Positions 1 to 15,539 of a stretch of 15,539 nt of DNA are shown in pieces. The DNA comes from a virus. Numbering within the stretch: the first letter of the stretch is position 1; each line of letters opens with the position of its first letter. The stretch is taken from positions 1-15,539 of IMG/VR virus record IMGVR_UViG_3300045988_127212; one strand, written 5' to 3'. Made by a program: the position numbers and the translations under genes. Under the pieces are notes generated by a model. That model made no database searches, was not told the DNA's origin, and worked only from the letters and a program-made list of their open reading frames with translations.

Positions 1-55
1 ACCTGTGCAACGAATTTCGTACCAGGAACGCCGCTTAGCTGACCAAACTTTTATT
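1..55. repeat. 55-nt terminal overlap identical to 15485..15539 (circular closure of the contig)
   Basis: By direct comparison, acctgtgcaacgaatttcgtaccaggaacgccgcttagctgaccaaacttttatt occurs at both ends. It lies inside the terL reading frame. Confidence 0.95.
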
Positions 56-268
56 ACCGCCGCCCGCGACGATCACACGCTAATTCACGACGGCGCTAGC
101 GTGCTCAGGCAAGCTATTTCAGCCGCGCAGATTCGCCGCGTGAACGGAATGGAACTACTCGACCGCGAAAAAAGCCTGGCACCCATCCCATCGCTTATCG
201 CCGCGTCAATCGCGATCTACGCAGATACACACCGCGTGGAAGACTACGTACCCACGCTTGTTGCCTAA
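1..268 (+). CDS. terL: Terminase large subunit, C-terminal part (wrap-around continuation of 14340..15539); stop TAA at 266..268
   Basis: Codon phase: position 2 equals 15486, which is a codon start in the 14340 frame. The track ORF 5..268 is in the same frame, and its apparent GTG start is internal. Confidence 0.85.
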   Translation, partial: PVQRISYQERRLADQTFITAARDDHTLIHDGASVLRQAISAAQIRRVNGMELLDREKSLAPIPSLIAASIAIYADTHRVEDYVPTLVA

Positions 269-305
269 CAGCCCGCAGCGTGGCATGAATGACCCTGGAT
301 AACCC

Positions 306-348
306 AAACGCGGCCGATTAGTAGACGCGCGCGTACCCACCCGCGTTT
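306..348. repeat. Nested dyad symmetry in the terL-portal gap: AAACGCGG (306..313) / CCGCGTTT (341..348) enclosing the palindrome ACGCGCGCGT (325..334)
   Basis: Read directly from the sequence. It is followed by TTATT. Function unknown. Confidence 0.6.
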
Positions 349-358
349 TATTGCCGGT

Positions 359-1528
359 ATGGACATTCGTTCGAAATTGCTTTCCGCGATCGGCTTCACG
401 ACCCGCGCCGCCGTGCCTCAGTCGCTAAACAATACGCTGACCGCGTTGCGATCGACGACGAACGTTCAACCCCTCCCACCCGAAGCCGCCGTATCGCTTT
501 CCGCTGTTTACAGGTCAATTAGCATTATCTCTACCGCTATGCGACAGCTCAGCTTGACAGTGGAACGCGGCGGCGCACAACTTCCGGCGAAGGATATCCC
601 CGCGTGTATCCGGCGACCGAATTTGCACCAATCGCGCGGCGATTTCATCGAAGCGGCGACAATCTCCCTAGCATCGACCGGCAACGCATACATTAAAGTT
701 AACCGTTTCGGCGACAGTGTAGACGCGCTTACCGTGCTTAATCCGTGGGAATGCCAAGCTGTCATAGACACCGACACAGGTGTGAAGACTGTTTCCTACC
801 GTGGCAAGGTCTATCAGTTCGATGAAATCCTACACGTTCCACTGCTCACGCTACCCGGCGCAACGAACGGCCTTGGACCTATCCAAGCTTCCTATATGGA
901 ACTCTCGACGGCCCGCGACGTTCGCGACTTCGCCGCCGGCTGGTTCCGAAACAGCGGACAACCTTCGGGAATTCTTTCCACTGACCAGAAGGTGAGCACC
1001 GACGATCTTATAGCCATGCGAAACGCGTGGAATTACCTAGACCCAGACGGTAACCCGCTTGACATGTCCGCGAACCCTTCACGTATTCGCGTCTTCCCGC
1101 ATGGACTTACCTACACGCCTATTCTTATTTCCCCGCGTGAAGCGCAATGGCTTGAAGCGCAGCAATTCAACACGACGCAGATCGCGCGTATTTTCGGCAT
1201 TCCCGCGCCGCTCCTGCTCGCCGCCGTTGAAGGCAATGCGCAGACCTATAGCAACGTTGAACAGGAATGGATCGCGTTCACTCGCTTCACATTGCAGTCT
1301 TACATTTCCAAACTCGAAGACGCTCTAACAATGTGCGTACCGCGCGGGCAACGCGTGAAATTCAACGTTGAAGCACTGCTGCGATCAGACACCGCAAGCC
1401 GCTACGCCGCGCACAAGACAGCTATTGAAATCGGACTGTATTCACCGCAATACGCACGCGAAATTGAAGGTATCCCAGACACAGCCGCACCGAACCAGAC
1501 ACACGAAAGCGAAGGCGAAGGCGAATGA
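359..1528 (+). CDS. Portal protein (HK97-family type)
   Basis: 389 aa, sited between terL and the prohead protease. Sequence character is portal-like (..NAYIKVNR.., ..QWLEAQQFNTTQIARIFGIPAPLL..) with an acidic C-terminal tail. Its stop overlaps the next start as ATGA. Confidence 0.85.
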   Translation: MDIRSKLLSAIGFTTRAAVPQSLNNTLTALRSTTNVQPLPPEAAVSLSAVYRSISIISTAMRQLSLTVERGGAQLPAKDIPACIRRPNLHQSRGDFIEAATISLASTGNAYIKVNRFGDSVDALTVLNPWECQAVIDTDTGVKTVSYRGKVYQFDEILHVPLLTLPGATNGLGPIQASYMELSTARDVRDFAAGWFRNSGQPSGILSTDQKVSTDDLIAMRNAWNYLDPDGNPLDMSANPSRIRVFPHGLTYTPILISPREAQWLEAQQFNTTQIARIFGIPAPLLLAAVEGNAQTYSNVEQEWIAFTRFTLQSYISKLEDALTMCVPRGQRVKFNVEALLRSDTASRYAAHKTAIEIGLYSPQYAREIEGIPDTAAPNQTHESEGEGE

Positions 1529-3075
1529 ACCTAGACCAGCTACAGACACGTTCGCTTGCATTTAGGGCGAAAATCGACGGCTTGACCGTTGAAGGTATCG
1601 GCGTACCTTTTAATCGAGAAATCGAATTCGGCGGCTGGTACGAACAGTTCGCGCCCGGAAGCATCGACGACGAAGGCGCAATCCTGCGCTATGGACACAC
1701 CGAACCTATCGGCGTAATCACCCACGCCGAAGACACCGACCATGGCCGCAAGATTACCGCCCGCATCTCTGATACGCAGCGCGGCCGCGATATCGCGCAG
1801 CTTATCCGTGACGGTGTGCTCACTAAATTTTCGATTGGATTCGAACCACTCGAATACACCACCGACGAAAACCAGGAATCTACGCACATCACCTACACCC
1901 GCGTGAAGGCGCGTGAATTCTCAGTAGTCGAATTCCCAGCCTACGACACCGCGACAATTTCCGAAATCCGCAAACAACCAGACCAGGAACCCGTTAGGAC
2001 CCAGCACATGAACATTGAAGAAATCCGTTCCCAGATCACCGAAGCCATTACACCGCTCACGTCTGCTATCGACGACTGCGAACGCGAAATCCGTTCCCTT
2101 CGCACTGCGACAGATCGCAACGCCGAAACCCCGTTCGAATTCCGTTCCCTTGGCGCATACGTGAAGGCTCTCGCCGCCCGCGACGAAATGGCAACCCGCG
2201 CATTTGAAGGCGCAACCATTGGCCGCACCGTCGCCCGCCCGGCCTGGCTTGGCTCGCTTGAAAAGCGAATGAACGCAAAGCAAGTCGTTACGAACTTGTT
2301 CACTCACACGACCGATTTGCCCGCCGAAGGAATGACCGTCGAATACGCCGTGAAGAAGGGCGCAACCACGATCGGCATTGACAACGATCACAAGGAAGGC
2401 GAAGCGCTTCCCACCGGTAAGCCCGCCGAATACGAAGTGAAGTCCGCGCCTGTCCTTACCTACGCCGGCGGCGCTGAAATCAGCTTCGAAGCCGTTGAAC
2501 GCGCCTCAATCTCCCTGCTTGACGACATGCTATTTGATCAGGCATTCGCCTATGCAACGGCAATTGAGACGAAGACCCGCGAAGTCTTCAATACTGCCGT
2601 GACTACCGCCGAAACCACGCCGTTGAAGACGATTGCTAGCCTTCGCGCCGCGACCGTGAACGACTGGACCGACTTCGTTCTAGCACTGATCGACGCATAC
2701 GACGCAACGCCGTATGTGCTCGACGGCCTGGCAGTCTCGCCGGCCGTGTTCCAGGCTCTCGCCGGACTCGATCGCGCACCCAAGGCCCTGCAATTCTCTG
2801 GTGCACCCGTCGACCATCAGGGCACGATTACCCTTCCTTCGGGACGCGGCGACTTCGCAACGATCACCGTTCAGCGAATCCCGAACTGGACTGGTAACCA
2901 CGCGGTTGGCTACGCCCGCGAAGCTATCCGAATCAAGGAAGCGCCCGGCGCGCCGTACCGCTTGCAGGACTCGCAGATTTTCAGCCTCACCAAGCAATTC
3001 GCCGTTTACGGCTACGCTTCGCACTTCGCGCCGAAGCCTGAACTGATTAAGGCACTCAAGTTCAATGCAGCCTGA
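1525..3075 (+). CDS. Prohead protease (HK97/S78-like), scaffold-like linker and major capsid protein fused in one ORF
   Basis: 516 aa. The N-terminal ~150 aa carry protease-like motifs LRYGHTEPIG and KFSIGFEP. A helical, charged segment spans roughly residues 162-235. The C-terminal ~280 aa look capsid-like and sit at the capsid position, after the portal and before the head-tail adaptor. Confidence 0.8.
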   Translation: MNLDQLQTRSLAFRAKIDGLTVEGIGVPFNREIEFGGWYEQFAPGSIDDEGAILRYGHTEPIGVITHAEDTDHGRKITARISDTQRGRDIAQLIRDGVLTKFSIGFEPLEYTTDENQESTHITYTRVKAREFSVVEFPAYDTATISEIRKQPDQEPVRTQHMNIEEIRSQITEAITPLTSAIDDCEREIRSLRTATDRNAETPFEFRSLGAYVKALAARDEMATRAFEGATIGRTVARPAWLGSLEKRMNAKQVVTNLFTHTTDLPAEGMTVEYAVKKGATTIGIDNDHKEGEALPTGKPAEYEVKSAPVLTYAGGAEISFEAVERASISLLDDMLFDQAFAYATAIETKTREVFNTAVTTAETTPLKTIASLRAATVNDWTDFVLALIDAYDATPYVLDGLAVSPAVFQALAGLDRAPKALQFSGAPVDHQGTITLPSGRGDFATITVQRIPNWTGNHAVGYAREAIRIKEAPGAPYRLQDSQIFSLTKQFAVYGYASHFAPKPELIKALKFNAA

Positions 3076-3388
3076 TGAAGCCATGATTAGCGCGGCCGCT
3101 GAATACGTACATGCAACCGGCGGCGATAGGCAGTTTGTCGCCGAATGCACGACGGCGGCGGCCGCGCTAGTCGACCGGTTTATAGGCACTAGCAAGGTGC
3201 CCGCCGATATCCGAAAGTCAGCGATTCTAGAAGTCACTGCGAACCTCTTTAATCGCCGCTCTTCTAGCCGCGACGCGTCAACCGCGTTGGACGCTGATTC
3301 TACGGCCTCATTCTTTAGGCCCGCTCTCGACCCGCTCACGCCCGCATATCCCATGCTACGCCCGTTCATGAAAGCCGCGTTTGTCTGA
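3065..3388 (+). CDS. Head-tail adaptor/connector (gp6-like)
   Basis: 107 aa, immediately after the capsid gene. Size and pattern (..AAALVDRFIG...AILEVTANLFNRR) are typical of head-tail connector proteins. An alternative start is ATG 3083. Confidence 0.55.
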   Translation: MQPDEAMISAAAEYVHATGGDRQFVAECTTAAAALVDRFIGTSKVPADIRKSAILEVTANLFNRRSSSRDASTALDADSTASFFRPALDPLTPAYPMLRPFMKAAFV

Positions 3389-3741
3389 TGTTTTACGACA
3401 TTAACGAAATCATTGAAGACGCGACAATACAGGGCCTAACTGTAACCGCTGACCCTACCGCGCTTCGCCCGGCGCTAGCCGCCGGCGAAACGTGCCTATG
3501 GATTGGCGCACCCGAAGCAATCGAGTTCGAAGGTTATGGACAAGGAACCTGCACATGGGCAACCGTGATCGTTCACCCGAACTACCGCGACCACATGGCC
3601 GCACTGCCCGAAATGCTTGCCCTGGCCGAAACCCTTGAACCGCGCCTGGCAGTTACCAGGATTCGACCGGACACGATCGACCTGGCAGGAACCGTTTACC
3701 CAGCCCTTGAACTTTCGTTCGAAACAACATTTAGGAAGTGA
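3388..3741 (+). CDS. Head-tail joining / neck protein, exact role unknown
   Basis: 117 aa with a TGATG overlap onto the upstream gene. Assignment is by position between adaptor and tail tube gene; I recognise no specific motif. Confidence 0.4.
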   Translation: MFYDINEIIEDATIQGLTVTADPTALRPALAAGETCLWIGAPEAIEFEGYGQGTCTWATVIVHPNYRDHMAALPEMLALAETLEPRLAVTRIRPDTIDLAGTVYPALELSFETTFRK

Positions 3742-3746
3742 AAAAC

Positions 3747-4172
3747 ATGGCCGAAAAATTCCCTAAGCTTGGCCCTGGAACCTTGAAGTTCGGCGAAACC
3801 GCTAGTGCACGCGAATTCGCCGCGCGCCTGTCTAGCGTGAAATACACGCCTTCAATGAAAGACGAAGACCCTATCGCTCTCTTGGACGGCTCAGAATTCG
3901 TTCCTAGCGGCGACGTGACCGGCGAACTGTCTGGAACGTTCTATCAAGACTTTGATAAGACCGGAATTGTCGCATGGACCTATGCGCACGCCGGCGAAGT
4001 CATGCCCTACATTTTCAAGCCGAACAACAATGAGCAAATGACCTTGAAGGGCAAGGTGAAGATTACGCCGGTTGTGATCGGCGGCGACGTAAAGAAGGAG
4101 AACACCACCGACTTCACGTTTACGACCGTAGGCGGGCTTCCCACAATCGAATTCGGAAACGTGCCCGGGTAA
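3747..4172 (+). CDS. Major tail (tube) protein, putative
   Basis: The track ORF starts at GTG 3738. ATG 3747 is preferred because AGGAAG (3733..3738) lies 8 nt upstream. The product is about 141 aa; GPGTLKFGE...VVIGGDVKKENTTDFTFT resembles small siphovirus tail tube proteins. Confidence 0.55.
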   Translation: MAEKFPKLGPGTLKFGETASAREFAARLSSVKYTPSMKDEDPIALLDGSEFVPSGDVTGELSGTFYQDFDKTGIVAWTYAHAGEVMPYIFKPNNNEQMTLKGKVKITPVVIGGDVKKENTTDFTFTTVGGLPTIEFGNVPG

Positions 4173-4174
4173 TC

Positions 4175-4621
4175 GTGGGAAGCGGACGCGGTAAAAGCCC
4201 GCTCTTCGAAGTCGCAAACGCTAGAGAGTATCGCCGGCGAATGAAAGCCGCCGGCGACTCTCTAGAAGACCTCAAACAACTTCACAAAGACGTTGCAACG
4301 CTTGTTGTCGCCGAAGCGCAGCGACTTGTTCCGCGCAAAGACCAAGACCTAGCCGGGACAATCCGCGCAAGTGGAACAAAAACCGCCGCAATCGCCCGCG
4401 CCGGTAACAAGCGAATCAGGTACGCAGGAATGATTCAGTGGGGACGAAAGATTTGGCCCTCTGTACGTGCTAAAAAACCGCCGTCTGGCCGCGAAAAGCA
4501 TGATTCTGTGTACCTTCCTAGTCTGTTCCTCACCCGCGCCGCCGCTGACAGCGAACCGAAGTGGGTAGGAATGTATATCGACCATATTGAGAACTCATTA
4601 GAGAAAGCCGCCGAATCATGA
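4175..4621 (+). CDS. HK97 gp10-like tail completion / head-tail joining protein
   Basis: 148 aa. The pattern AEAQRLVPRKDQDLAGTIRASG...RIRYAGMIQWG...LFLTRAA fits the HK97 gp10-family layout (PxxTGxLxxSI ... YAxxxxxG ... FLxxA). Start is GTG with a weak RBS. Confidence 0.55.
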   Translation: MGSGRGKSPLFEVANAREYRRRMKAAGDSLEDLKQLHKDVATLVVAEAQRLVPRKDQDLAGTIRASGTKTAAIARAGNKRIRYAGMIQWGRKIWPSVRAKKPPSGREKHDSVYLPSLFLTRAAADSEPKWVGMYIDHIENSLEKAAES

Positions 4622-4893
4622 TTCAAAAGACATTCGTTTCTTACGAACTCGCAGACGGACAAACCGGAACCGCGCGCATTTTGGCGTTCGACAAGATCAT
4701 TGCCGAACGTACCTGCCAAATGAATTCATGGGAATTCAAGGACGGCCCGCGCCTGGCCTCAGTCATTCTTTACGCCGCGCTTCAGCGCCTTCACGTCATT
4801 GAAGAAGTGTCCTACGAAGAGTTCGCAGAAAAGATTCTTGTTGACTACTCACCCAGCGACGCGCCCGAAGACACGGGAAACCCTACCCGGTAG
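4618..4893 (+). CDS. Tail assembly chaperone (G-like, zero-frame product)
   Basis: 91 aa, acidic, immediately upstream of the tape measure gene. It has an ATGA overlap with the upstream gene and contains the slippery heptamer near its 3' end. Confidence 0.7.
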   Translation: MIQKTFVSYELADGQTGTARILAFDKIIAERTCQMNSWEFKDGPRLASVILYAALQRLHVIEEVSYEEFAEKILVDYSPSDAPEDTGNPTR

Positions 4894-5021
4894 GCGAATG
4901 GACCGCCGCCGTTGTCGCACTAGCCATGCGAACAGGTATCCCCGTTTCCGCATGGCTTAGCGAACCCGCCGAAATTCTTGAAACAGCTTTAACGATCGCC
5001 TTCAATTCTGAAAAGGGGTAA
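4618..5021 (+). CDS. Tail assembly chaperone -1 frameshift product (GT-like), about 134 aa
   Basis: After a -1 slip at G_GGA_AAC (4875..4881) the frame stays open to TAA 5019..5021 and encodes ..PYPVGEWTAAVVALAMRTGIPVSAWLSEPAEILETALTIAFNSEKG. It ends 4 nt before the tape measure ATG. Confidence 0.65.
4875..4881 (+). promoter_or_regulatory. Programmed -1 ribosomal frameshift slippery heptamer GGGAAAC (X_XXY_YYZ)
   Basis: In the zero frame it reads acG GGA AAC. The lambda G/GT site is GGGAAAG. It lies 10 nt before the zero-frame stop. Confidence 0.65.
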
Positions 5022-5025
5022 CCAC

Positions 5026-7032
5026 ATGGGTTCAGGTAAGAGCGCAATTCTTGCCGTGAAGATTCTTGGCGACGCACAAGGCGCAGTTAAGGCAATTAAA
5101 GACACTGAGGATGCCGGCGGCGGCCTATTCTCCAAAATCACAGGCGGCCTTCCAAGCTTCGCAATGATTGGCACGGTAGCCGCCGGCGCGGCGATCGCCG
5201 CCGGTAAGGCTCTTTACGGTATCGGCGAAGCGTTCGACGAAGTAGAAGACACTATCCGCGTGGGCACAGGCGCTACCGGCGACGCTCTAAAAGGCTTGGT
5301 AGACGATGCCCACGCCGTCGCTACCAGTATCCCCACATCTTTCGAAGATGCCGGGAAAACGGTAGCCGACTTAAACACGCGCCTTGGTTTATCCGGCGAC
5401 CAGCTGCAAACCGTCGCTAAACAATATCTTGAAGCCGGCCGCATTCTCGGCGAAGACGTTGACGTAAACACAACCACCGCAGCGTTCCACGCGTTCAACC
5501 TGGAAAACGACCAGGTCAGCGGCGCAATGGACAACCTATTCAGGGTATCGCAAGCAACCGGCGTGGGAATTAACGACCTTGCCGGGAAAATGACCGCCGG
5601 CGCTGAAACGCTGAACAACCTTGGATTTAGCTTCGAAGAAGGCGCTGCCCTCATTGGCGCTCTCGATAAGGCCGGCGTAGACAGCGCCGCAACGCTTGGC
5701 GTAATGAAAAAGGGAATGCTTGCCGTCGCTAAGCCCGGCGAAGATATGCAATCCGCATTTTTCCGCGTCACACGCGAAATTGAAGAATTCACCGCCCGCG
5801 GCGACACGGCCGGCGCGCTCGACCTGGCCGGAAAGGTCTTCGGTACCAAGGGCGCGGCTCAAATGGTACAAGCGATTAAAAGCGGTTCCATTAACATTGA
5901 CGACCTCATGGGGAAGATCGGCGCTACTGGTGATTCGATTCTCAAGGTAGGAGAAGAAACCCAGGACGCAGCGGAAAAATGGACGATTCTTAAAAACCGT
6001 GGAATGGAAGCGCTTCGCCCGCTCGCCGAAGGGGCGTTTAGCCTGGTAGGCGATGCGCTAGGCAAGCTCATGGATTTTATCGACGGACTAGACTTCACGC
6101 CGGTAACAAGCGCGTTCCAGGCCGCCGCGCCTTGGCTTTCAAGCACCGCCGAAAACCTTATGACGCTTGGCGCGTCCGTTATGAATATGGTGTCTTCCGT
6201 TTGGTCATTCGTTCAGCCTATCCTTATGCAGTTCGCGCCAGTCGTTATGTCGATTATCGACACGGTTAAAACGTACATTGGCGACCTGATCGGCGTTATT
6301 CAGAACGTCGTTTCATTCGTTACTGCAATCTTTAACGGCGATTGGTCCGCCGCGTGGGAAGCCGCAAAGAACATCGTTTCGGGTACGCTGTCGCTAGTTT
6401 CTAATCTCATTTCCAACATTTGGAACACGATTAGCAACATTTTCACCGGAATTAAGAACGTCATTGTGAACCTCTGGTCTTCCGCGTGGGACTTCGTGAA
6501 AACCGCCGCTTCTAACGGTGCTTCCGCACTGTGGAACACGATTAGCGGAATTCCAGGGCAAATTCTGTCAGCGCTAGGAAACGTTGGAAGCCTTCTTTAC
6601 AACGTGGGCCGCGACATTATCCAGGGCCTTATTAACGGTATTAAGAACATGGCCGGCGCGCTCTGGAACGGTATTAAAAGCACCGTTTCGGGCGCTGTGG
6701 ACGGTATTAAAAACTTCCTTGGCATTCATTCGCCTTCGCGCGTCTTTATGGAAATCGGCGAATTTTCCGGAACCGGCTTGATACTAGGACTAGAAAAGAA
6801 GAAGAACGCTGTACATAAGGCATACACAGACCTAGCGGCCGTTCCAAACCCCGGCGAATTCGCTATCCCTAATCCACGCTTCGCCGGCGGCCCCGGCGCT
6901 GCAAACGATCGCAACGCCGCCGTAACGATCAACATCACTGTTAACGGCGCGTTGGACGCAGACGCGACAGCCCGCGAAATTCAACGCGTACTACAGCGCG
7001 CTAATTGGCGTAACCAAGGGGTGCAACTCTAA
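5026..7032 (+). CDS. Tape measure protein
   Basis: 668 aa, Ala/Gly-rich and helical, with repeated WN(T/G)I(S/K) motifs and a C-proximal GIHSPSRVF motif common in tape measure proteins. The RBS AAGGGG lies upstream. Position after the G/GT chaperones fits. Confidence 0.9.
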   Translation: MGSGKSAILAVKILGDAQGAVKAIKDTEDAGGGLFSKITGGLPSFAMIGTVAAGAAIAAGKALYGIGEAFDEVEDTIRVGTGATGDALKGLVDDAHAVATSIPTSFEDAGKTVADLNTRLGLSGDQLQTVAKQYLEAGRILGEDVDVNTTTAAFHAFNLENDQVSGAMDNLFRVSQATGVGINDLAGKMTAGAETLNNLGFSFEEGAALIGALDKAGVDSAATLGVMKKGMLAVAKPGEDMQSAFFRVTREIEEFTARGDTAGALDLAGKVFGTKGAAQMVQAIKSGSINIDDLMGKIGATGDSILKVGEETQDAAEKWTILKNRGMEALRPLAEGAFSLVGDALGKLMDFIDGLDFTPVTSAFQAAAPWLSSTAENLMTLGASVMNMVSSVWSFVQPILMQFAPVVMSIIDTVKTYIGDLIGVIQNVVSFVTAIFNGDWSAAWEAAKNIVSGTLSLVSNLISNIWNTISNIFTGIKNVIVNLWSSAWDFVKTAASNGASALWNTISGIPGQILSALGNVGSLLYNVGRDIIQGLINGIKNMAGALWNGIKSTVSGAVDGIKNFLGIHSPSRVFMEIGEFSGTGLILGLEKKKNAVHKAYTDLAAVPNPGEFAIPNPRFAGGPGAANDRNAAVTINITVNGALDADATAREIQRVLQRANWRNQGVQL

Positions 7033-8789
7033 TGCTTGCCTCTTGTACTCTTAGCGTTGCAGGTCAGCGCGTTACCGCACTAGATAGCCTTACTGTCACG
7101 TGGGGACGCGATAACGCGACGACACAGCCGCCGGCGGCTACCTGCACCGCAAGCCTGTTCGTTGACGACGCAGCAACCGCACTGCAAATGTACACGATCG
7201 GCCGCAAGGTAACCGTTTCGTCTGATATTTCGACGTACACCACCGGAACCGCCGCAGTTTACCCGATTGCGCTTGCAGCTGCGCTTTACGGAACAATCGA
7301 CACGGCCGGCCGCATCCGCTCAGACGCAGACGGCGACGACCTAGCAATTTTGACATTGCCACCCGCGCAGATAAGCGACGACCCCGCCGCGTGGGACGCT
7401 ATTCCCGTCGCCGAATCAGGCACAACATGGACTATTGAAGCGGCGCTAGACCTACCGCCCGGCGCTAGCGTCTCTATCAGGCCCTGTTATTACGCGTCGC
7501 CGTCCGCGTCACCGACCTTCGGCGAAGAAATCGCGTCAATCAGGCAAACCGGAACAGTTCGCGCCGCGTTCACTATCCAACCTAACGCCCGCCGCAAGTG
7601 GGTTGGCGTTGTCTTGGTAGCCGGACCGACCGGCGTTACCTGGAATACCAGCCCCGTGCCCTGGAAGCCAGGCCCGCGCACCTGGACTGGCCTAAACACG
7701 ATCACGCTTCGAAGCATGCAAGTCACGCGCCCGAAGGAAGCGACAACGATTCAGGCCGAAGTTTTTGCTGGTTCGATTACAGACGTTTCCCTAGAGTTCA
7801 ACGAACAGGCCAAGCGGCCGGTACTACAGATCACAGCCGCCGATATGCTTGCCGAACTAGAGCATGTTCGCGTGTCAGCAGAGCCGTGGGCAACGCAACG
7901 GCTTTCCGACCGGTTAAACAATATCGTTCGCGCTCTCCCGCAATCTGTGACCCCTTCTATTACTGTTGACCCGGTTCCCGCGTCCCGTTCTTTGATCTGG
8001 CAAGATGCAGATAGCCAAAGCGCAGCAACCTTGTTTAAATCGGCGGCGACCAGTACCGGCGCGGTTCTTTGGTCAGCGACGCACAGGCTTACCGGCCCGT
8101 ACCTCAAATTCGAAGACCCGTCGACGCGCGGCGCGCTAGGCAAGCTCACCCTTGAAAACGGACAACTGCACGTTTCGGCGCAGAAAGCCGCGCACACGCT
8201 TTCAGCTTCCCAGCTACTCAGGGAAGGAACGCTAACGCAGTCTAACGGCGACGCGGCTAGCGTTGTGCGCTTGACGTGGAAAGAACCCGGCGTAGACGCA
8301 GACGGTAAGCGAACGGCAACAGATCGCACAATCACGATCGCAGATAAGGACCTCATTTCACGAATCGGTTACCGCGAAATCAGCCTATCAACGTCACTGG
8401 CTATCCAGGCCGAAGCCGAAGCCGCCGCCGCACGTCTATTCCGCACCTACCTACCAGGCGGCTTTAACATTCCGCGCCTGACGTGGGATACCCGCGTACA
8501 CCCTGAGAAGATCAACCCGGACACCCTGGCGACACTGCTCGACGCTACCCGGCGGCTTGGACTGATGCTATCGGTAACTGATCTTCCCGCATGGTATCCG
8601 GCGCGCACAATGACAACCTACATTGACGGCGGCCGCTACACGTATGAAAACCAGCGTTGGAAGCTAGAACTTAACGCGTCTACCACCGCCGCAACGGGAC
8701 GCGGCTTGACCTGGAACCAGCTACCGCCCGTTACCTGGAACAAGTCACGCCCGCTCACGTGGGCTCTTAGCGCTCGAATCACCTACTAG
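7032..8789 (+). CDS. Minor tail protein (distal tail / tail tip component)
   Basis: 585 aa, directly after the tape measure gene with a TAATG overlap. The N-terminus (..LSVAGQRVTALDSLTVTWGRDNATTQP..) resembles the first minor tail protein of actinophages. Confidence 0.65.
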   Translation: MLASCTLSVAGQRVTALDSLTVTWGRDNATTQPPAATCTASLFVDDAATALQMYTIGRKVTVSSDISTYTTGTAAVYPIALAAALYGTIDTAGRIRSDADGDDLAILTLPPAQISDDPAAWDAIPVAESGTTWTIEAALDLPPGASVSIRPCYYASPSASPTFGEEIASIRQTGTVRAAFTIQPNARRKWVGVVLVAGPTGVTWNTSPVPWKPGPRTWTGLNTITLRSMQVTRPKEATTIQAEVFAGSITDVSLEFNEQAKRPVLQITAADMLAELEHVRVSAEPWATQRLSDRLNNIVRALPQSVTPSITVDPVPASRSLIWQDADSQSAATLFKSAATSTGAVLWSATHRLTGPYLKFEDPSTRGALGKLTLENGQLHVSAQKAAHTLSASQLLREGTLTQSNGDAASVVRLTWKEPGVDADGKRTATDRTITIADKDLISRIGYREISLSTSLAIQAEAEAAAARLFRTYLPGGFNIPRLTWDTRVHPEKINPDTLATLLDATRRLGLMLSVTDLPAWYPARTMTTYIDGGRYTYENQRWKLELNASTTAATGRGLTWNQLPPVTWNKSRPLTWALSARITY

Positions 8790-8804
8790 AAAGGACAAAA
8801 GGAC

Positions 8805-9263
8805 ATGCCGGCAACAACAAGCACGCTAAACCTGCCCTATCCTCTTGACAGTGATCGCTTGGAAGACTTTCCGACGATCGCAAAGCAATCCGCGCAACTG
8901 ATCGACCAAGCCGCAACCACAAAAGCCGTTGTTTTGCCGGTATTTGATGACGCTTGGCGACATGACCCAGACGGCGGCCTGGTACGAAGCGTGAACGGCG
9001 TACACCACCTAAACATTTCATTGCGCCGCATTAAAAACAGCTTCCACATGGACGCAAACGGCATCGTTGACATTTATCGCGTTAACAATCTTGTTAAGGT
9101 TCCCAACACGCGCGAATGGGTATTCTGTGGCTCTATCTACGGCCCGGGTGTTTGGCCTATGCCAGTGTTCCTAGATAAAGGCCTTGTTCGAGTGCTCTGT
9201 TATGGCCCGGTGGACTTTACAAAGGATTCTGTTTACCGTGGTTCGGCGGTGTGGACAGCATGA
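8805..9263 (+). CDS. Minor tail protein, possible receptor-binding component
   Basis: 152 aa. The N-terminal LNLPYPLDSD...IAKQSAQLID motif recurs in actinophage minor tail/fiber proteins. A strong RBS (gaaaggacaaaaggac) precedes the ATG. Confidence 0.5.
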   Translation: MPATTSTLNLPYPLDSDRLEDFPTIAKQSAQLIDQAATTKAVVLPVFDDAWRHDPDGGLVRSVNGVHHLNISLRRIKNSFHMDANGIVDIYRVNNLVKVPNTREWVFCGSIYGPGVWPMPVFLDKGLVRVLCYGPVDFTKDSVYRGSAVWTA

Positions 9264-10012
9264 CCATTCACCCGAACTACGCTGTAACCGACGTTCGCGA
9301 ATCCCCGAACTACGACCCAGGCCGCCCGCTAGGCGGCCCCACGGGAATCGTCATCCACTGGTGGGGCCTCCCCGAACGGGGACAAACACACGACCAGGTA
9401 GTTAATTACCTCATAAACGGCAACCGTGCTAACCCCACATCCGCCCATTACGTCGCATCTGTAGGCCGTGTCACTCAGCTTGTGTCGGACGGTGACCGCG
9501 CGTGGCATTGCGCCGGAAACAACATGCGGACAATCGGTATCGAGTGCCATCCCGCCGCGCTCGACGGCGACATGAAGACGATCGCCCGCCTTATCGCAGC
9601 GATTCGGAGCGAATGGGGACCGCTACCGCTTTCACGGCATTGTGACCACTTCGCTACCGCTTGCCCTGGCAACTATAAAGACAAACTCGAAACTCTCGAC
9701 TATCTCGCAACACACGAAGGAGACAATGATATGCAACTCAGCGACCAGGTAACCCGACCCGACGGACACACCGCAACCGTGAACGACGTTCTTGCCTATA
9801 TTGACATGCGCATTGAACGCATCGAATCCGTGCTAATCGGTGGACAAGACAAGAAAGGCGAAGACGGCAAACCAACCGGCGCACGCACCAACGTCTTTGA
9901 TGAAGCCGCCTGGAACGCAACCAATTTCGCGCGCGTGTACGCCGGCATTGAAGCGCTTTCGAAGCGCGTTGACGACCTTGTGAACCTTATTGAAGTTGGT
10001 GCATCAAAGTGA
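9260..10012 (+). CDS. Endolysin, N-acetylmuramoyl-L-alanine amidase (Amidase_2/PGRP, T7-lysozyme-like) with an unassigned C-terminal ~100 aa
   Basis: Motifs GIVIHWWG, SAHYVAS, RAWHCAGNNMRTIGIE and SRHCDHFATACPG match the Zn-ligand His/His/Cys pattern. The track start is GTG 9251; ATG 9260 forms an ATGA overlap with the upstream stop. Confidence 0.85.
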   Translation: MTIHPNYAVTDVRESPNYDPGRPLGGPTGIVIHWWGLPERGQTHDQVVNYLINGNRANPTSAHYVASVGRVTQLVSDGDRAWHCAGNNMRTIGIECHPAALDGDMKTIARLIAAIRSEWGPLPLSRHCDHFATACPGNYKDKLETLDYLATHEGDNDMQLSDQVTRPDGHTATVNDVLAYIDMRIERIESVLIGGQDKKGEDGKPTGARTNVFDEAAWNATNFARVYAGIEALSKRVDDLVNLIEVGASK

Positions 10013-10239
10013 GCGAATCCCCGCGCCATGCAACCCCTCAGCCCATCACGTGGTTAACGCCGCAAGTTCGCGCCTGGCTCTACGGTATCGTCACCGCGCT
10101 TGTGCCTATCTTGACGATTTACGGAATTGTTGACCAGACGGCCGCGCCACTCTGGCTTGCCCTGGCCGCTTCCGTTCTTGGAACGTCAACGGCCCTTGCA
10201 CACACACCGTTTGGCGGCGACAGTGCACGCGATCGCTGA
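10009..10239 (+). CDS. Holin (two transmembrane helices, r1t-holin-like pattern)
   Basis: 76 aa with hydrophobic helices WLYGIVTALVPILTIYGIV and PLWLALAASVLGTSTALA. It follows the endolysin directly with a GTGA overlap. Confidence 0.65.
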   Translation: MSESPRHATPQPITWLTPQVRAWLYGIVTALVPILTIYGIVDQTAAPLWLALAASVLGTSTALAHTPFGGDSARDR

Positions 10240-10516
10240 AATTATCACAGCAACCGGCGGGCTTGGCGGCCTGTCCGCCGCGCTCACAGGCGCAGCGACC
10301 TTGCTTGCCGCCCGCCGCACCCGCGCGCAGCTTGAACCGAATCATGGTTCCAGCGTGAAGGACCAGCTGAACAGGATTGAACAGGAGCTAAATAACCACG
10401 GTACGCAGTTGCTCCAAATCACGCATCGAATAGATAGCGTTGACGATCATGCGCATGACACGCACCGTGAAATTAACCAGCGACTTTCAGCCCTGGAACA
10501 CGGCCGGCGACGCTAG
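10223..10516 (+). CDS. Small membrane protein with a C-terminal coiled coil, a possible lysis accessory
   Basis: The track ORF 10127..10516 overlaps the holin by 113 nt, and its N-terminus is rich in Arg, Pro and His. The in-frame GTG 10223 gives about 97 aa: a TM segment (IAEIITATGGLGGLSAALTGAATLLAA) followed by a helical region (VKDQLNRIEQELNNHGTQLLQI..). Confidence 0.45.
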   Translation: MHAIAEIITATGGLGGLSAALTGAATLLAARRTRAQLEPNHGSSVKDQLNRIEQELNNHGTQLLQITHRIDSVDDHAHDTHREINQRLSALEHGRRR

Positions 10517-11325
10517 GCGGCGGCTTCGACAACACGCCTTAGCGTATCGTCAGCGAGCTGCAAATACACTAGCGTCGTTTCCGGCGACGCGTGCCCAAGA
10601 ATCCGCTGCACAGCAACCAAATCGCGCGTAGCCCTGTACGCGCGCGTCGTAAACCTATGACGAAGCGAATGCATGGAAACGCCGGCCGGCATTTCCCGCG
10701 AAATCAACTTCCCTAGCCACGCGGCGCTAATATGGCCGTCTTCCTTCCCCGGAAAAACAAAGCCATTGAAGCGCTGTAATTCGCCGGCAATCGCCGCAGG
10801 TAGTGGGACAATCCTTGTTTTATTGCCCTTGCCATGAACGATTAGCGCCATGCCTTCCGGTGTTTCGATTAGATCGCGATCGACATTGATACACGCCACT
10901 TCCGCGCGCCTTAAACCCGTTTCTACGGATATCCGCGCTGCTAGGCGTACCCTCCAATCTCTGGATAGTAGGCACGCTTGTAAAGTCGCGTCGCTTGCAG
11001 GATGGGGAGCCGCCGGCGTTTTTCGCACGCTTGGAATCTTCGGCACGTCTTGAATGTAGCCATTTGATTTAGCCCAGGCGTAGAACCCCTTCACGGTCTG
11101 GTGCGCACTTCGCCGCGTTGCCTGTGACCAGTTTTGAGCCGCTGACCAGTCAATAACGCTAGTCAGTTCCACGTTAAACGGCTCTACCTGGACCCAGCGC
11201 GCAAACCGCGCTAACCAATCTCGCCTAAGCGCCGCCGTCTTCGGCGTACAGCCCGCCGCTAGTAAGAATCTTTCATACGCCGCTACCGGTCCCGCCCAAC
11301 CCGCCGGCATCGTCATAGTGAACAT
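10513..11325 (-). CDS. int: Tyrosine integrase / site-specific recombinase (short, Xer-like, no arm-binding domain apparent)
   Basis: 270 aa. Catalytic signature: ETGLRRAEV (Arg), HGKGNKTR (Lys), HSLRHRF (His-x-x-Arg), LGHAS (His), TLVYLQ (Tyr). The C-terminus is ..VVEAAA. Confidence 0.93.
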   Translation of the reverse strand: MFTMTMPAGWAGPVAAYERFLLAAGCTPKTAALRRDWLARFARWVQVEPFNVELTSVIDWSAAQNWSQATRRSAHQTVKGFYAWAKSNGYIQDVPKIPSVRKTPAAPHPASDATLQACLLSRDWRVRLAARISVETGLRRAEVACINVDRDLIETPEGMALIVHGKGNKTRIVPLPAAIAGELQRFNGFVFPGKEDGHISAAWLGKLISREMPAGVSMHSLRHRFTTRAYRATRDLVAVQRILGHASPETTLVYLQLADDTLRRVVEAAA

Positions 11326-11335
11326 ATACAGATAA

Positions 11336-11677
11336 TTACGCGGCGGCGCTCAGCTCGCATTCAGAATCGCTAACGGCGTAACCGTCGATAGTCTCCCAAT
11401 CCCGAGGTTGCAGGTTCGAGTCCTGTCGGGGGCGCAACTCGATACTTGGCGTGCCGTCTGAGTTATCCGTTACGAGATAAGCGACAGACACACCAAGGAC
11501 ATCGGCAACTGTGGGAAGGTCTTCAAGTGGCCATGCCCGCCCGCCGCGCCACCGCTTCGAAATCGTCGCTTGCTGCAAGCCAAGCGCATGTGCAATATCC
11601 CCTTGATAAAGGCCACGACGCGCCGCCTCTGCACGAATGTTTGACGCGACCACATCAACAAGATTTGTTGTACTCAT
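11336..11677 (-). CDS. HTH (Cro/C1-type) immunity repressor. The ORF contains the tRNA-like attP core, and the C-terminus is ..ELSAAA.
   Basis: 113 aa. HTH: GDIAHALGLQQATISKRWRGG. It is divergent from a Cro-like gene across an AT-rich region and lies 10 nt upstream of int on the same strand. Confidence 0.8.
   Translation of the reverse strand: MSTTNLVDVVASNIRAEAARRGLYQGDIAHALGLQQATISKRWRGGRAWPLEDLPTVADVLGVSVAYLVTDNSDGTPSIELRPRQDSNLQPRDWETIDGYAVSDSECELSAAA
11393..11436 (+). other. Putative attP common core: the 3' part of a tRNA (variable loop, T-arm, 3' acceptor strand), not a complete tRNA gene
   Basis: It reads CTCCCAA TCCCG AGGTT GCAGG TTCGAGT CCTGT CGGGGGC G. The T-stem GCAGG/CCTGT and canonical T-loop TTCGAGT are present. 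No D-arm or complementary 5' acceptor strand lies upstream. It is adjacent to int. Confidence 0.7.
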
Positions 11678-11778
11678 GCGGAAAGTGTATACCGAAACGG
11701 CATAACTAGCAATAGTTTGGACACTAAAAGTTCAATACGGCTTGATTTTTTATTTTCCGATATGGAATACTAATTTCC
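11678..11778. promoter_or_regulatory. Divergent early regulatory region (repressor vs Cro-like promoters and operators), AT-rich
   Basis: This 101-bp gap between divergent HTH genes is about one-third GC by hand count. It has short dyads TTCC-N5-GGAA (11755..11767), GGAA-N7-TTCC (11764..11778) and GTATAC (11687..11692). Neither start codon has a Shine-Dalgarno sequence. Confidence 0.6.
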
Positions 11779-12024
11779 ATGACATCAACGCAAACCGTCG
11801 TGACTCGCGTAGTACGGAACTACCTGCACGACTCAGGAATTTCGCAGCGGTCACTAGCCGCTGAACTTGGCGTTACACAAGCCACTTTGAGCCGCAAGCT
11901 TTCAGGAATCCGCACCTGGTCACTAGATGATCTTGACCAACTTATTCAAATCGGCGTGCCGATTGGTCTTGATGTTTTTGGCGCTGCGGTCAATGAGGAA
12001 TACGCACAAAAGGAGTCCAAATGA
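11779..12024 (+). CDS. Cro-like HTH regulator, first gene of the early rightward operon
   Basis: 81 aa. HTH: QRSLAAELGVTQATLSRKLSG. It is clearly similar to the repressor across LGxxQATxSxxxxGxRxWxLxDL. Confidence 0.65.
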   Translation: MTSTQTVVTRVVRNYLHDSGISQRSLAAELGVTQATLSRKLSGIRTWSLDDLDQLIQIGVPIGLDVFGAAVNEEYAQKESK

Positions 12025-12239
12025 ACCCGGTAAGCAATCTTCGACAGCTTGTTTATGTAATGAACGCACTCTGCAAGGTTGATTGTCTGCTTGCTGACCT
12101 GCAGCTTAAGGCAAAAGACGAGCTCGCAGAGTCAGAGAAAGCCGAGCGCGCGCTACTGATTCTGCGCTTAGAACTTCGAAAGGGAATCGCTGACGGCTTC
12201 GGCATTTTTGGAGACGAAGGTGAAACCGATGAACTTTAA
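12021..12239 (+). CDS. Hypothetical small helical/acidic protein
   Basis: 72 aa with AGGAG (12010..12014) upstream and an ATGA overlap with the cro-like stop. Confidence 0.6.
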   Translation: MNPVSNLRQLVYVMNALCKVDCLLADLQLKAKDELAESEKAERALLILRLELRKGIADGFGIFGDEGETDEL

Positions 12240-12405
12240 TAAATCGCTGTTTGCTTCGTTCGTTGTCTTCGCGTTAATGCTTATCTCAATTCTTGTTGCG
12301 TCGTTCATGTTCGACGGTTACCGCATTACGTGGCCTCATTACGCGGCTTTCGGTACTGCTCTTGCCTGGTACGGTGTAGAGCTTCACAGGAGCGAAGAAA
12401 AGTGA
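12229..12405 (+). CDS. Hypothetical small membrane protein (two hydrophobic helices)
   Basis: The track ORF starts at TTG 12208. ATG 12229 is preferred because GAAGG lies 8 nt upstream. The sequence reads MNFNKSLFASFVVFALMLISILVASFMF...HYAAFGTALAWYGV. Confidence 0.55.
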   Translation: MNFNKSLFASFVVFALMLISILVASFMFDGYRITWPHYAAFGTALAWYGVELHRSEEK

Positions 12406-13211
12406 CGCGCCGGCTTACCGCTCACGCTAGCGTTTTCACAATCCTTGACGCGCTCAGGCGCGCAGGGTGGGGTGTTCTACGCGGCCCGGCGTTCCGTTGT
12501 CACCGCGCTATTCTTGACTCGCTTGTAGCCGCTTCGCGTAATCAACGATCGGATTACGCAGGATTCTTCACGATCACCACTAACCAGCTCGCAGACCGCG
12601 CAGGTTATACAGATCGACACATTCGCGCTTGCTTACCTGACCTTGAAGACCTTGGCGTGATTACGTGGCACAGGGGCGGCGTTGTGGAAGGCCGCCCGCG
12701 TCCTGGACACATGCGCATTAACAAGAAGACGCTTGTTGACCTGGTACACGCCGCGCGACCTGTTTATGACCGACTGTTGAACCAGCGTCGCCGTGAAACG
12801 TCTGAACGTTTGCGCAAGCTCAACCGCGCCGTTCTATTTCCGCAAAAACCCCGCCGTGTTTCAGTGGATAACTCCCATGCGGAAATGAATTCATGCCTTC
12901 CTCTTAACAGGAGAGCAAGCGCAACCAGCGCGCTTGCTCATGCACAGAAAGCTTCTCCCGCTGTGGATACAGCGGTTAAGAAGAAAGGACAAACTGAATT
13001 GCGTGTAATCACGTTCCAATCATACATGAATAAGAAGTATCCGAACGCTCACACTGACCTATGGGCACTGTGCGATATTGACCCGGTAGCACAGGAGCTA
13101 GCAGAGCGCGGCGCAATGACTTATGAAGAGATTCGACGGCTGGAAACTGATTCGCATTTAGAACATGCGAACTTGGCCGGCGTTAGCGTGGTAGATATAT
13201 ATGAACGCTGA
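12402..13211 (+). CDS. Putative replication initiator / winged-helix DNA-binding protein
   Basis: GTG 12402 is preceded by AGGAG (12389..12393) and forms a GTGA overlap with the upstream stop. The track start 12330 would overlap the membrane ORF. The wHTH-like segment is FFTITTNQLADRAGYTDRHIRACLPDLEDLGVITWHRGG. It is the only candidate replication gene in the genome. Confidence 0.4.
   Translation: MTRRLTAHASVFTILDALRRAGWGVLRGPAFRCHRAILDSLVAASRNQRSDYAGFFTITTNQLADRAGYTDRHIRACLPDLEDLGVITWHRGGVVEGRPRPGHMRINKKTLVDLVHAARPVYDRLLNQRRRETSERLRKLNRAVLFPQKPRRVSVDNSHAEMNSCLPLNRRASATSALAHAQKASPAVDTAVKKKGQTELRVITFQSYMNKKYPNAHTDLWALCDIDPVAQELAERGAMTYEEIRRLETDSHLEHANLAGVSVVDIYER
12913..12939. repeat. Perfect 10-bp inverted repeat GAGCAAGCGC-N7-GCGCTTGCTC inside the initiator gene
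   Basis: Read directly from the sequence. It is flanked by two DnaA-box-like 9-mers (12863..12871 and 12962..12970) and a 10-bp palindrome ATGAATTCAT (12885..12894). Confidence 0.8.
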
Positions 13212-13395
13212 GGACGATCGTTACCGAATCAAGGTCGCTATTCACTCTGTTCTAGACAGCATTCTGGACGCGAAGGAAACTCTTCCTAGCTCACCTTCTT
13301 CATGCTCTACAACGCAGCTCAAATTACATACGCAGCTTAACGAAGCTCATAATCTCATGCTGCACGCGCTGTATCTCACGAATCAGGTGGACTAA
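13201..13395 (+). CDS. Hypothetical protein
   Basis: 64 aa. It overlaps the upstream gene by 11 nt and the downstream gene by a TAATG junction; I recognise no motif. Confidence 0.5.
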   Translation: MNAEDDRYRIKVAIHSVLDSILDAKETLPSSPSSCSTTQLKLHTQLNEAHNLMLHALYLTNQVD

Positions 13396-13607
13396 TGCAA
13401 GCGACAGCATGGACCGAAGAAGACTGCGCAAACTTCCTACAGGTTGATAAAGAGCTATTGAGGAAGCTCAGGCAGCGCGGCGGCGGGCCGCCGTTCGTGA
13501 AAGTAGGTAGAGCCGTTAGGTATATTCCCGCGCACGTCTCACGTTGGCTAGACGCTAACGCATCGACCACCACACAGACCGAACAACGACCGCTAATAAT
13601 CTCATGA
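13395..13607 (+). CDS. Excisionase-family (MerR/HTH_17-like) DNA-binding protein, candidate recombination directionality factor
   Basis: 70 aa. WTEEDCANFLQVDKELLRKLRQRGGGPPFVKVGRAVRYIPAHVSRWLD matches the excisionase-type HTH pattern (lt..e.a.yl.v....l..l...g..P.vk.Gr.vry....v..wl). Confidence 0.6.
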   Translation: MQATAWTEEDCANFLQVDKELLRKLRQRGGGPPFVKVGRAVRYIPAHVSRWLDANASTTTQTEQRPLIIS

Positions 13608-13900
13608 GAGACGATTGGACCAGCCTATCTAACAAGAAACGCAGAGCGTTCACGCTTGAACTTATCCGCATCTACGGCAACATCTGTTGCCTATGCGGAC
13701 TAAGGATTAAGCCAGGCGAAGAATCATGCGAACACCTTGTCCCCAGGAGCAAAGGCGGACGCACTACCTTCGCGAACTGTAGACCAGCGCACATTAGTTG
13801 TAACTGCTCTAAGCGAGACACTGAATATTTAGGCCCATCAGCGGTTATTTACGAAGGATTGTCTTCGCTGCTCGACGCACAAACCCGTTTTTCTGGCTAA
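13604..13900 (+). CDS. HNH endonuclease, packaging-associated
   Basis: 98 aa with CCLCG...CEHLVPRSKGGRTTFANCRPAHISCNCSK (Cys-pair plus His-Asn-His motif). It lies immediately upstream of the terminase genes. Confidence 0.8.
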   Translation: MRDDWTSLSNKKRRAFTLELIRIYGNICCLCGLRIKPGEESCEHLVPRSKGGRTTFANCRPAHISCNCSKRDTEYLGPSAVIYEGLSSLLDAQTRFSG

Positions 13901-13902
13901 AA

Positions 13903-13921
13903 GCACGGTGGTACACCGTGC
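13903..13921 (+). terminator. Stem-loop GCACGGTG-GTA-CACCGTGC after the early operon; possible terminator or part of cos
   Basis: Perfect 8-bp stem with a 3-nt loop, 2 nt after the HNH stop. No U-tract follows; instead there is a C8 run (13937..13944) and A-tracts. Confidence 0.35.
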
Positions 13922-13977
13922 GCTAGCTCGAAAAGTCCCCCCCCAAAAACACCTAAAAAAAATGGAAGTTGCAAAAA

Positions 13978-14340: not shown

Positions 14341-15539
14341 TGTTTACCCACTTCCCACCACCTGCCTACGGCCCGCGCCGTGACCCTGCCTATCTCAGCG
14401 AAGAACCGCGCCTAACCGCGCTGTCTCTCTCGCTTGGCAAGGAACCTCAGCCCTGGCAACGCTACGTGTGGGACGTTGGAACTCAATTCAAGTACGACAA
14501 CGACGGCCGCAAGATTTACAAGTACAGCGACGTTCTTGTAACCGTGCCCAGGCAATCCGGTAAAACAACGCTACTTCGCCCGCTTCGCCTTCTTCGTATG
14601 ATCGAAAACCCCGCCGCGCGCCTGTTCGCGACAGCGCAAACAGGTAAACACTCTTCCCTGCGAATGCTAGATATGATTAGCGAAGTTGAACACTCGCCGC
14701 TGTCTTCGTTCTTCAAGCCCAGGAAGGGCAAAGGCGACGCAGGTTTAGAACTTATCGCGAACGGTTCGAAGCTCTCGCAGTTCACGCCTAACGAAGAAGC
14801 TATCCACGGCGAAACAGCGATCTACGTTGACCTAGATGAAATTTGGTATTTCTCAAAAGCCCAAGGCGAAGCGATTCTAGGCGGCGTGCGACCGGCCGCC
14901 GCGACACTCTACGGGAAAGCTCAACGCTGGTACACGTCAACCATGGGAACACTCGCAAGCGAATTCATGAATGAAATGGTAGACCGTGGCCGAAAAGGCG
15001 AAGATCAATCCCTCTGCTATATCGAATTCTCGCTACCCGAAGGCTTGGACTACAAAGACCCCGCGAACTGGTGGAAATTCCACCCCGCGTTAGGGAACAC
15101 GATTAACGAAGCCGTCTTAGCTGACGAACTCGCTCATATGAGCGAAGGCGAATTCATGCGTGCCTATATGAACCGGCTAACAGACGTTCAAGATGCGATT
15201 ATTCCGCTGCAAATGTGGGACGACCTGGCAGACACTACGGTAATCCCGCCGGCCCTGGACGAACTCACCGTGGCGTTCGAAGTTGCACCGTCGAATGCCT
15301 GTTCCGCTGTTGTGGCCGCGTGGAATACAGACGACGGCCCGGCCGTCCGCGTCCTGCACCAAGCGCCTGGCACGGCCTGGCTAATCCCCTATTTGAACGA
15401 TCTTATGGACCGTGGCATTACTCGATTCACCGCAGACGACGCAGGGCCGGTTAAACGTATCCTGGATAAGATCGGCGACACGCTACCTGTGCAACGAATT
15501 TCGTACCAGGAACGCCGCTTAGCTGACCAAACTTTTATT
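14340..15539 (+). CDS. terL: Terminase large subunit, N-terminal 400 codons. The ORF runs off the window end and continues at 56..268 on the circle, about 470 aa in total.
   Basis: Not in the supplied ORF track because it has no stop inside the window. My manual translation from ATG 14340 (ATGA overlap with the upstream stop) is open to 15539: MFTHFPPPAYG...VLVTVPRQSGKTTLL (Walker A) ...AIYVDLDEIW (Walker B-like). The frame matches ORF 5..268. Confidence 0.9.
   Translation, partial: MFTHFPPPAYGPRRDPAYLSEEPRLTALSLSLGKEPQPWQRYVWDVGTQFKYDNDGRKIYKYSDVLVTVPRQSGKTTLLRPLRLLRMIENPAARLFATAQTGKHSSLRMLDMISEVEHSPLSSFFKPRKGKGDAGLELIANGSKLSQFTPNEEAIHGETAIYVDLDEIWYFSKAQGEAILGGVRPAAATLYGKAQRWYTSTMGTLASEFMNEMVDRGRKGEDQSLCYIEFSLPEGLDYKDPANWWKFHPALGNTINEAVLADELAHMSEGEFMRAYMNRLTDVQDAIIPLQMWDDLADTTVIPPALDELTVAFEVAPSNACSAVVAAWNTDDGPAVRVLHQAPGTAWLIPYLNDLMDRGITRFTADDAGPVKRILDKIGDTLPVQRISYQERRLADQTFI
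15485..15539. repeat. Second copy of the 55-nt terminal overlap (identical to 1..55)
   Basis: Direct comparison with 1..55. Confidence 0.95.

Follow-up and report, generated by a model that had tools for sequence, protein, structure and literature searches.

Integration-dependent immunity has been described in the mycobacteriophages BPs (Cluster G), Brujita (Cluster I1), Charlie (Cluster N) and those of Cluster P (Broussard et al. 2013; PMC3694055, PMC4557955), and the role of the ssrA-like tag is documented in BPs (PMC3694055, PMC4557955). In phages of this type, an int–rep operon is divergent from cro, an attP core derived from the 3′ part of a tRNA lies inside the 3′ part of rep, and the prophage repressor is shorter than the phage form (103 rather than 136 aa in BPs). 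Both the phage-form repressor and the integrase (Int) have C-terminal ssrA-like termini. The system is also known in smaller phages. The Gordonia Cluster CW phages GRU3, GMA5, Jeanie and McGonagall (17.1–17.7 kb) carry a 37-bp attP in rep that matches a tRNA-Lys gene (PMC5559632). [quoted passage not shown]

Here, we analysed a 15,539-nt stretch of viral DNA (positions 1 to 15,539 of IMG/VR record IMGVR_UViG_3300045988_127212), referred to as the window. The same 55 nt stand at both of its ends (1..55 = 15485..15539) and the large terminase gene runs across the ends, so the window is a circular assembly, with a unique length of 15,484 bp. It has a G+C content of about 55% and about 23 genes, including a small-siphovirus set of portal, tape measure protein, amidase endolysin, holin and HNH endonuclease (coordinates of the features discussed here are in Table 1). 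The ORF in which prohead protease and major capsid protein are fused is kept in relatives. Megablast searches with the whole window and with the switch region returned no match among 50,697 GenBank phage records. In the switch region, int and rep are adjacent and co-oriented and are divergent from a cro-like gene, an order that is syntenic in all relatives; int starts 10 nt downstream of the rep stop, in agreement with the coordinates given in an earlier note made from the sequence of the window. The window probably represents the whole circular genome of a temperate, as yet uncultivated siphovirus that infects Actinomycetaceae and has an int–rep–cro integration-dependent immunity switch.

Table 1. 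Coordinates of the features of the window
Feature	Coordinates	Strand	Details
516-aa ORF, Peptidase_S78 prohead protease fused to major capsid protein	1525..3075	+	
int, tyrosine integrase, 270 aa	10513..11325	-	Pfam Phage_integrase 7e-17
rep, phage-form repressor, 113 aa	11336..11677	-	Pfam HTH_3 and BetR; PHROG transcriptional repressor
rep part split off by integration, W94–A113 plus stop	11336..11398	-	Carries the Ala-Ala-Ala terminus; beside int at attR
attP common core, 38 bp	11398..11435	+	tRNA positions 37–73 plus at least one flanking base common to attB
rep–cro intergenic control region, 101 nt	11678..11778		
Candidate leftward Prep	-35 TTGCTA 11712..11707; -10 TACACT 11689..11684		17-nt spacer; 6 nt to rep ATG
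Candidate rightward PR	-35 TTGATT 11742..11747; -10 AATACT 11766..11771		18-nt spacer; 7 nt to cro ATG
cro-like HTH protein, 81 aa	11779..12024	+	Pfam HTH_26 and HTH_3; divergent from rep
HTH_17 (excisionase/MerR-type) protein, 70 aa	13395..13607	+	Pfam PF12728, 28.2 bits (cut-off 27)
Large terminase, 475 aa	14325..15539 joined to 1..about 355		ORF bridges the window ends

The window phage shares with the BPs type its gene order, the tRNA-derived core inside the 3′ part of rep, the shortening of the repressor upon integration (from 113 to 93 aa) and, at the level of sequence, the ssrA-like termini of repressor and Int. In contrast to the BPs-type phages, its host family is Actinomycetaceae, its site is tRNA-Arg(TCT), its genome is about 15.5 kb rather than 41–50 kb and it has a possible HTH_17 excisionase. 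To our knowledge, BPs-type systems lack an excisionase and Int alone catalyses recombination in both directions. The window Int is 40% identical over its whole length to gp32 of the Cluster G phage Angel (E 7e-56), but is without the ∼60-aa extensions found at each end of gp32. No similarity was detectable between the window repressor and BPs-type gp33.

The best Int matches in cultured phages were those of Gordonia phages SallySpecial and GRU3 (39–41% identity). Cluster CW and SallySpecial (15.9 kb) are likewise temperate siphoviruses of 16–18 kb with the same int–rep–cro cassette, and the repressors of the small Gordonia phages are weakly similar to that of the window (26% identity, E 1e-5). 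SallySpecial Rep contains a tRNA-antisense peptide (IRDSNPEPAD) and ends in ...MSAA, and its Int ends in ...AWAA. The differences are the Gordonia host, the tRNA-Lys site in Cluster CW and, in SallySpecial, a rep–int gap of 325 nt compared with 10 nt in the window phage; similarity to the window is confined to the protein level. The small B. breve prophages differ in host genus and tRNA, and are known only as prophages, whereas the window lineage is found both circular and integrated in assemblies.

The plus strand at 11393..11434 reads CTCCCAA TCCCG AGGTT GCAGG TTCGAGT CCTGT CGGGGGC G. The earlier note had read these letters correctly as the 3′ part of a tRNA, although it placed their end two bases too far, at 11436. 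The first 7-mer, described there as anticodon-loop-like, matches the tRNA at 5/7 bases (CTCCCAA in the phage, CTTCTAA in the tRNA), and continuous identity starts only at A37 (11398). From this base, 11398..11434 corresponds to positions 37–73 of the Actinomycetaceae tRNA-Arg(TCT) with 37/37 identical bases, in 26 genome-contig loci, which supplies the matching host tRNA that the note had called for. The chance expectation for a 37-nt exact match is about 1e-18 in 31 kb of two-strand sequence. Because of the 37/37 identity, the tRNA-like segment is not a chance look-alike. In agreement with the proposal that only the 3′ part of a tRNA is present, ARAGORN found no complete tRNA in the window; the absent 5′ acceptor strand had been given as GCCCCCG, but the true tRNA strand is GCCTCCG.

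To define the host site, one genome per species was scanned with the 30-mer GAGGTT...GGGGGC. This gave 27 loci, from Schaalia turicensis, S. meyeri, S. georgiae, several Actinomyces, Pauljensenia, Winkia neuii, Trueperella pyogenes and related MAGs, and ARAGORN called tRNA-Arg(TCT) at the match in 24/27. At locus L026, the match lies inside a tRNA-Arg(ACG) (ARAGORN). This uncultured Actinomycetota MAG contig has 21 tRNA genes clustered within 1.9 kb (191..2083), among them the tRNA-Arg(ACG) with the identical 30-nt T-arm and acceptor sequence. A different target, tRNA-Arg(CCT), had been predicted from protein alignment; ARAGORN and the genome scan ruled it out in favour of tRNA-Arg(TCT).

The attL-type alignments all begin at 11398 and the attR alignment stops at 11435, and the common core is therefore 38 bp long. 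Read antisense, it supplies rep codons 81/82–94. The earlier note had thus located the core correctly, antisense within rep, but its extent, given as L81–E95, is L81–D93 with the adjacent W94. At attL in L032 (6950..7000) and L031 (at a contig end), the tRNA has a compensatory T-stem change, from G52–C62 to A52–T62. The phage copy of the core is the presumed source of this variant; if so, the crossover would lie between tRNA positions 37 and 51. An IMG/VR search for the variant core of L032 found no phage-form copy with it.

We examined integrated relatives for the predicted junctions. The closest, IMGVR_UViG_3300045988_172259 (loci L040 and L060), is about 91% identical to the window. This prophage opens with the final 15 nt of the 5′ portion of the tRNA, followed by the core, and is collinear with the window from 11398 via 15539/1 round to 11397, with 91% identity from 11398 through 15539 and 1 to 8503, and 87% for 8504 to 11704. 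Its core copies are 15,483 bp apart, compared with the unique length of 15,484 bp in the window. Int is 95% identical to that of the window and the other proteins are 65–100% identical, all but one at least 84%. The prophage repressor in L040 has 93 aa, 92/93 of them identical to the window, and ends in ...LQPRD at a TAG that is derived from the tRNA. The detached tail ...WETVDGYAGSDPECELIAAA lies beside int at the far end of the prophage in L060.

Further loci gave the same picture. L059 is an attR that aligns with window 3368..11435 at 91% (Int 98% identical), and beyond 11435 it continues into a host flank identical to the one beside the unoccupied attB of, among others, Actinomyces sp. S6-Spd3. 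For a sister phage, we recovered the full set of sites: attP in L036 (a 15.6-kb contig), attB in L014, attL in L030 and attR in L010. Here, attL and attR are on one MAG contig with cores 15,503 bp apart, and the flanks match base for base. L003 and L032 are attL sites in which the shortened rep lies antisense over an intact tRNA-Arg(TCT), followed by the host MTHFR (metF) and MetE (metE) genes. ARAGORN called an intact tRNA-Arg(TCT) at attL in L003, L017, L021 and L030, whereas attR in L010 gave no such call.

The genomic expectations of the earlier note for integrated copies were all borne out. The junctions in L040/L060, L059, L030/L010, L003 and L032 fall in the core, the prophage rep ends early (at 93 aa in L040), and recombination parts int from the rep promoter region, with int at the other prophage end in L060. 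Integration had been expected to remove at least the last 18 codons of rep; removal is confirmed, and the number is 20 (W94–A113). Together, these loci show that the prophage encodes a C-terminally shortened repressor and that the tRNA gene is regenerated at attL. Both free circular and integrated genomes of the lineage occur in assemblies, which gives direct evidence of the long and the short repressor rather than an in silico reconstruction.

The two forms were also evident among repressor homologues. A search of 5.8 billion proteins gave 96 Rep homologues, which included a long class (111–127 aa, full query coverage) on contigs of 15.1–16.5 kb and a short class of 92–99 aa that covers the first 65–82% of the query, with several members on contigs of 67–932 kb. 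In the alignment, short forms stop at ...LQPRD or at ...PPTGLEPATSGLEGPCSIH. Both endings derive from one core DNA that sister lineages translate in two frames, as LRPRQDSNLQPRD and PPTGLEPATSGL (window 11398..11435 compared with L003 10238..10300, L036 and L033). In the first frame, anticodon bases 35–36 and A37, read in antisense, form the prophage stop. In the second, the ORF continues across the anticodon and D arms, both in antisense, and ends at a TGA within the D-arm (final residues ..EGPCSIH). Read on the rep strand, GAT TGG of the phage (Asp93–Trp94) corresponds to GAT TAG of the tRNA. The identity between phage and tRNA thus breaks off at the very base whose difference keeps the rep ORF open, which argues for selection for read-through into the rep tail.

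What follows this point varies greatly in sequence, but not in how it ends. The core peptide is present in 83 homologues, 60 tailed and 23 truncated. The tails are of at least four unrelated types (...ECELIAAA, ...ELMIAA, ...HVGSGAAA and ...DMWTQAA); 54 end in AA and three in VA (57/60), compared with 0/23 truncated forms. The window Rep ends in ...SDSECELSAAA. Int has a similar Ala ending (...VVEAAA), a feature absent from the earlier note, and an AA or VA ending is found in 84/95 Int homologues of less than 300 aa, compared with 0/25 longer ones. A C-terminal Ala-Ala resembles the ssrA tag that is recognised by ClpXP. The C-terminus of the phage-form repressor is therefore a putative ssrA-like proteolysis signal, as judged from these endings and from the BPs precedent, and Int is predicted to carry a C-terminal proteolysis signal as well. 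In the AlphaFold2 model of Rep, a five-helix HTH domain is predicted with a pLDDT of about 90 at residues 4–70, and values fall below 60 at residues 71–113. Given this predicted disorder beyond residue 70, the cut at residue 93 would take away only a flexible tail.

These data are best explained by a switch of the BPs type. Transcription of rep and int would start together at a promoter immediately upstream of rep (the Prep candidate). After infection, the 113-aa repressor and Int would both be unstable, owing to ClpXP-type proteolysis through their C-terminal Ala-Ala degrons, as the BPs paradigm and the conservation of the endings suggest. Immunity would then depend on Int persisting until the genome has been integrated, such that integration amounts to commitment to lysogeny. 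As the junctions show, recombination of the attP core with attB by Int places the rep promoter and codons 1–93 beside the tRNA 5′ half at attL, and carries the tail and int to attR, away from the rep promoter. The prophage repressor has 93 aa, with the HTH intact and no ...AAA tail, because the antisense anticodon loop supplies TAG in place of TGG (Trp94). Excision would rebuild the tagged, inactive repressor and so lead to lytic growth. In this scheme, it is the breakdown of the 113-aa repressor and the activity of the 93-aa one that we infer from sequence and by analogy. At the genomic level, the integration-dependent immunity architecture proposed in the earlier note is upheld by the core within rep, the shortened prophage rep, the AA/VA tails and the homology of Int to Cluster G gp32. 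Against the explanation stand a phage-form contig with an untagged 97-aa Rep (L033, below), the conserved HTH_17 ORF and the sub-threshold scores of the candidate promoters.

Alternatively, the attP in rep and the shortening may be real but have no regulatory role, with both forms being functional repressors. The tail could then serve oligomerisation or modulation of Prep, or simply keep an ORF open over a site constrained by the tRNA. Both forms of the BPs repressor bind DNA alike and the long one may modestly activate Prep (PMC4557955), and the untagged repressor of the phage-form contig L033 would also fit. We nevertheless consider this explanation unlikely. A shared AA/VA terminus on 57/60 otherwise unrelated tails and on 84/95 short Int proteins, but not on long ones, is expected for a C-terminal degron rather than for a structural role. 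The repressor tail is predicted to be disordered, and tRNA identity ends exactly at the base that turns TAG into TGG. A decayed phage tRNA gene, host DNA from aberrant excision or chance resemblance would account for a half tRNA with no ARAGORN call in the window, but is exceedingly improbable and already refuted by the junctions: all 37 bases match the host tRNA, homology between phage and prophage forms breaks at 11398 and 11435 in many independent contigs, and direct repeats of the core flank 15.5-kb prophages.

The control region of the BPs-type switch proposed here lies between rep and cro. The Prep and PR candidates were read by eye from the sequence; both score 8/12, which is under the threshold of the generic scan, and a generic sigma-70 scan of 10400..12100 returned no promoter. 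The hexamers and spacing of the Prep candidate are conserved in an alignment of nine family members. The rep and cro mRNAs are predicted to be leaderless or nearly so. A repeat search of the rep–cro intergenic region gave no convincing operator. The control region of the L003 prophage differs from that of the window at one position, which makes homoimmunity between this prophage and the window phage probable. The HTH_17 protein, encoded just upstream of the HNH endonuclease gene and conserved in relatives, is a possible recombination directionality factor.

In addition to complete prophages, remnant arrays were frequent at tRNA-Arg(TCT) (L060 2904..5200, L014 5123..6876, L017 2909..5168, L021 3000..3310 and L011). 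Each remnant comprises a rep N-terminus and its promoter, to which cro and part of int may be added, and closes with a full or partial copy of the core; in L060, a host lactate permease gene follows the array. The repressors encoded by these remnants are untagged, and the remnants may provide immunity. Two apparent exceptions at this locus were rejected. L001, where rep adjoins int and host genes are on the other side, was considered as a counterexample, but it is an int-side prophage junction abutting an older remnant rep N-terminus, next to the host lactate permease gene. An attR seemed to be missing in L017 and L021, which have a single copy of the core 30-mer; both hold only rep (+cro) remnants and no whole prophage.

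Where a prophage abuts a remnant, the rep N-terminus of the remnant is joined through the core to the tail of the incoming phage. In L010 (2915..3250), this fusion is in frame and the AA tag is regained. Fusions are out of frame where the lineages differ in frame, as in L060 (2861..3181, ending ..GLGDCRRLRR) and L001 (3583..3864, ending ..QPRD). A hybrid rep is also present in L033 (4534..4827), a complete 15.6-kb phage-form contig, in which the untagged protein stops at 97 aa (..QPRD). This contig may be a defective or mis-assembled hybrid; otherwise, the phage configuration must tolerate a repressor without a tag.

One reading of these fusions, which we regard as improbable, is that tRNA-Arg(TCT) is a composite immunity locus contested by phages, in which the reading frame of the core decides whether an incomer disables resident immunity. 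If so, each remnant (rep N-terminus and Prep) would express an untagged, presumably active repressor. A newcomer would take the tRNA for its own repressor and fuse its own tail to the neighbouring remnant repressor. The resident repressor would regain an AA tag between lineages of the same frame, and would stay untagged between lineages of different frames.

Phages of mycobacteria, Gordonia and Bifidobacterium are already known to use this switch; what is new is the host family, and no new mechanism is involved. The earlier note had seen special interest in a 15.5-kb minimal genome, but the system has been reported for genomes of 17 kb (Cluster CW) and 18 kb (Bifidobacterium prophages) (PMC5559632, PMC6109161), which weakens this point. 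In our literature search, we found no report of integration-dependent immunity for Actinomycetaceae phages, and the available part of the account of the Schaalia odontolytica prophage Xhp1 (PMC13578794) holds nothing on its repressor or attachment site. Our results would therefore extend integration-dependent immunity to Actinomycetaceae phages, in a lineage that is abundant in public assemblies (hundreds of Int and Rep member sequences). With about 23 genes and a three-gene switch, the window phage is a compact natural example of the circuit. Broussard and Hatfull reportedly proposed this circuit as an ancestral lysis–lysogeny switch. Genetic tools for Schaalia and Actinomyces are few, and attB together with the 270-aa integrase and its 38-bp core could be used as an integration tool in these genera.

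More distant Rep homologues (P0052, P0089, P0093, P0095 and P0060) contain other tRNA-antisense-like peptides, such as GRPTGTRTRNPRI, RESNPEPTD and KGLEPPTF, and their short and long (..VA) forms fit the same scheme. Attachment sites thus seem to have moved to other tRNA genes within one architecture. Finally, the contigs of several family members (P0105, P0109, P0124, P0023, P0027 and P0075) are 31.3–32.7 kb long, about twice the genome length, and could be tandem double lysogens or concatemers.
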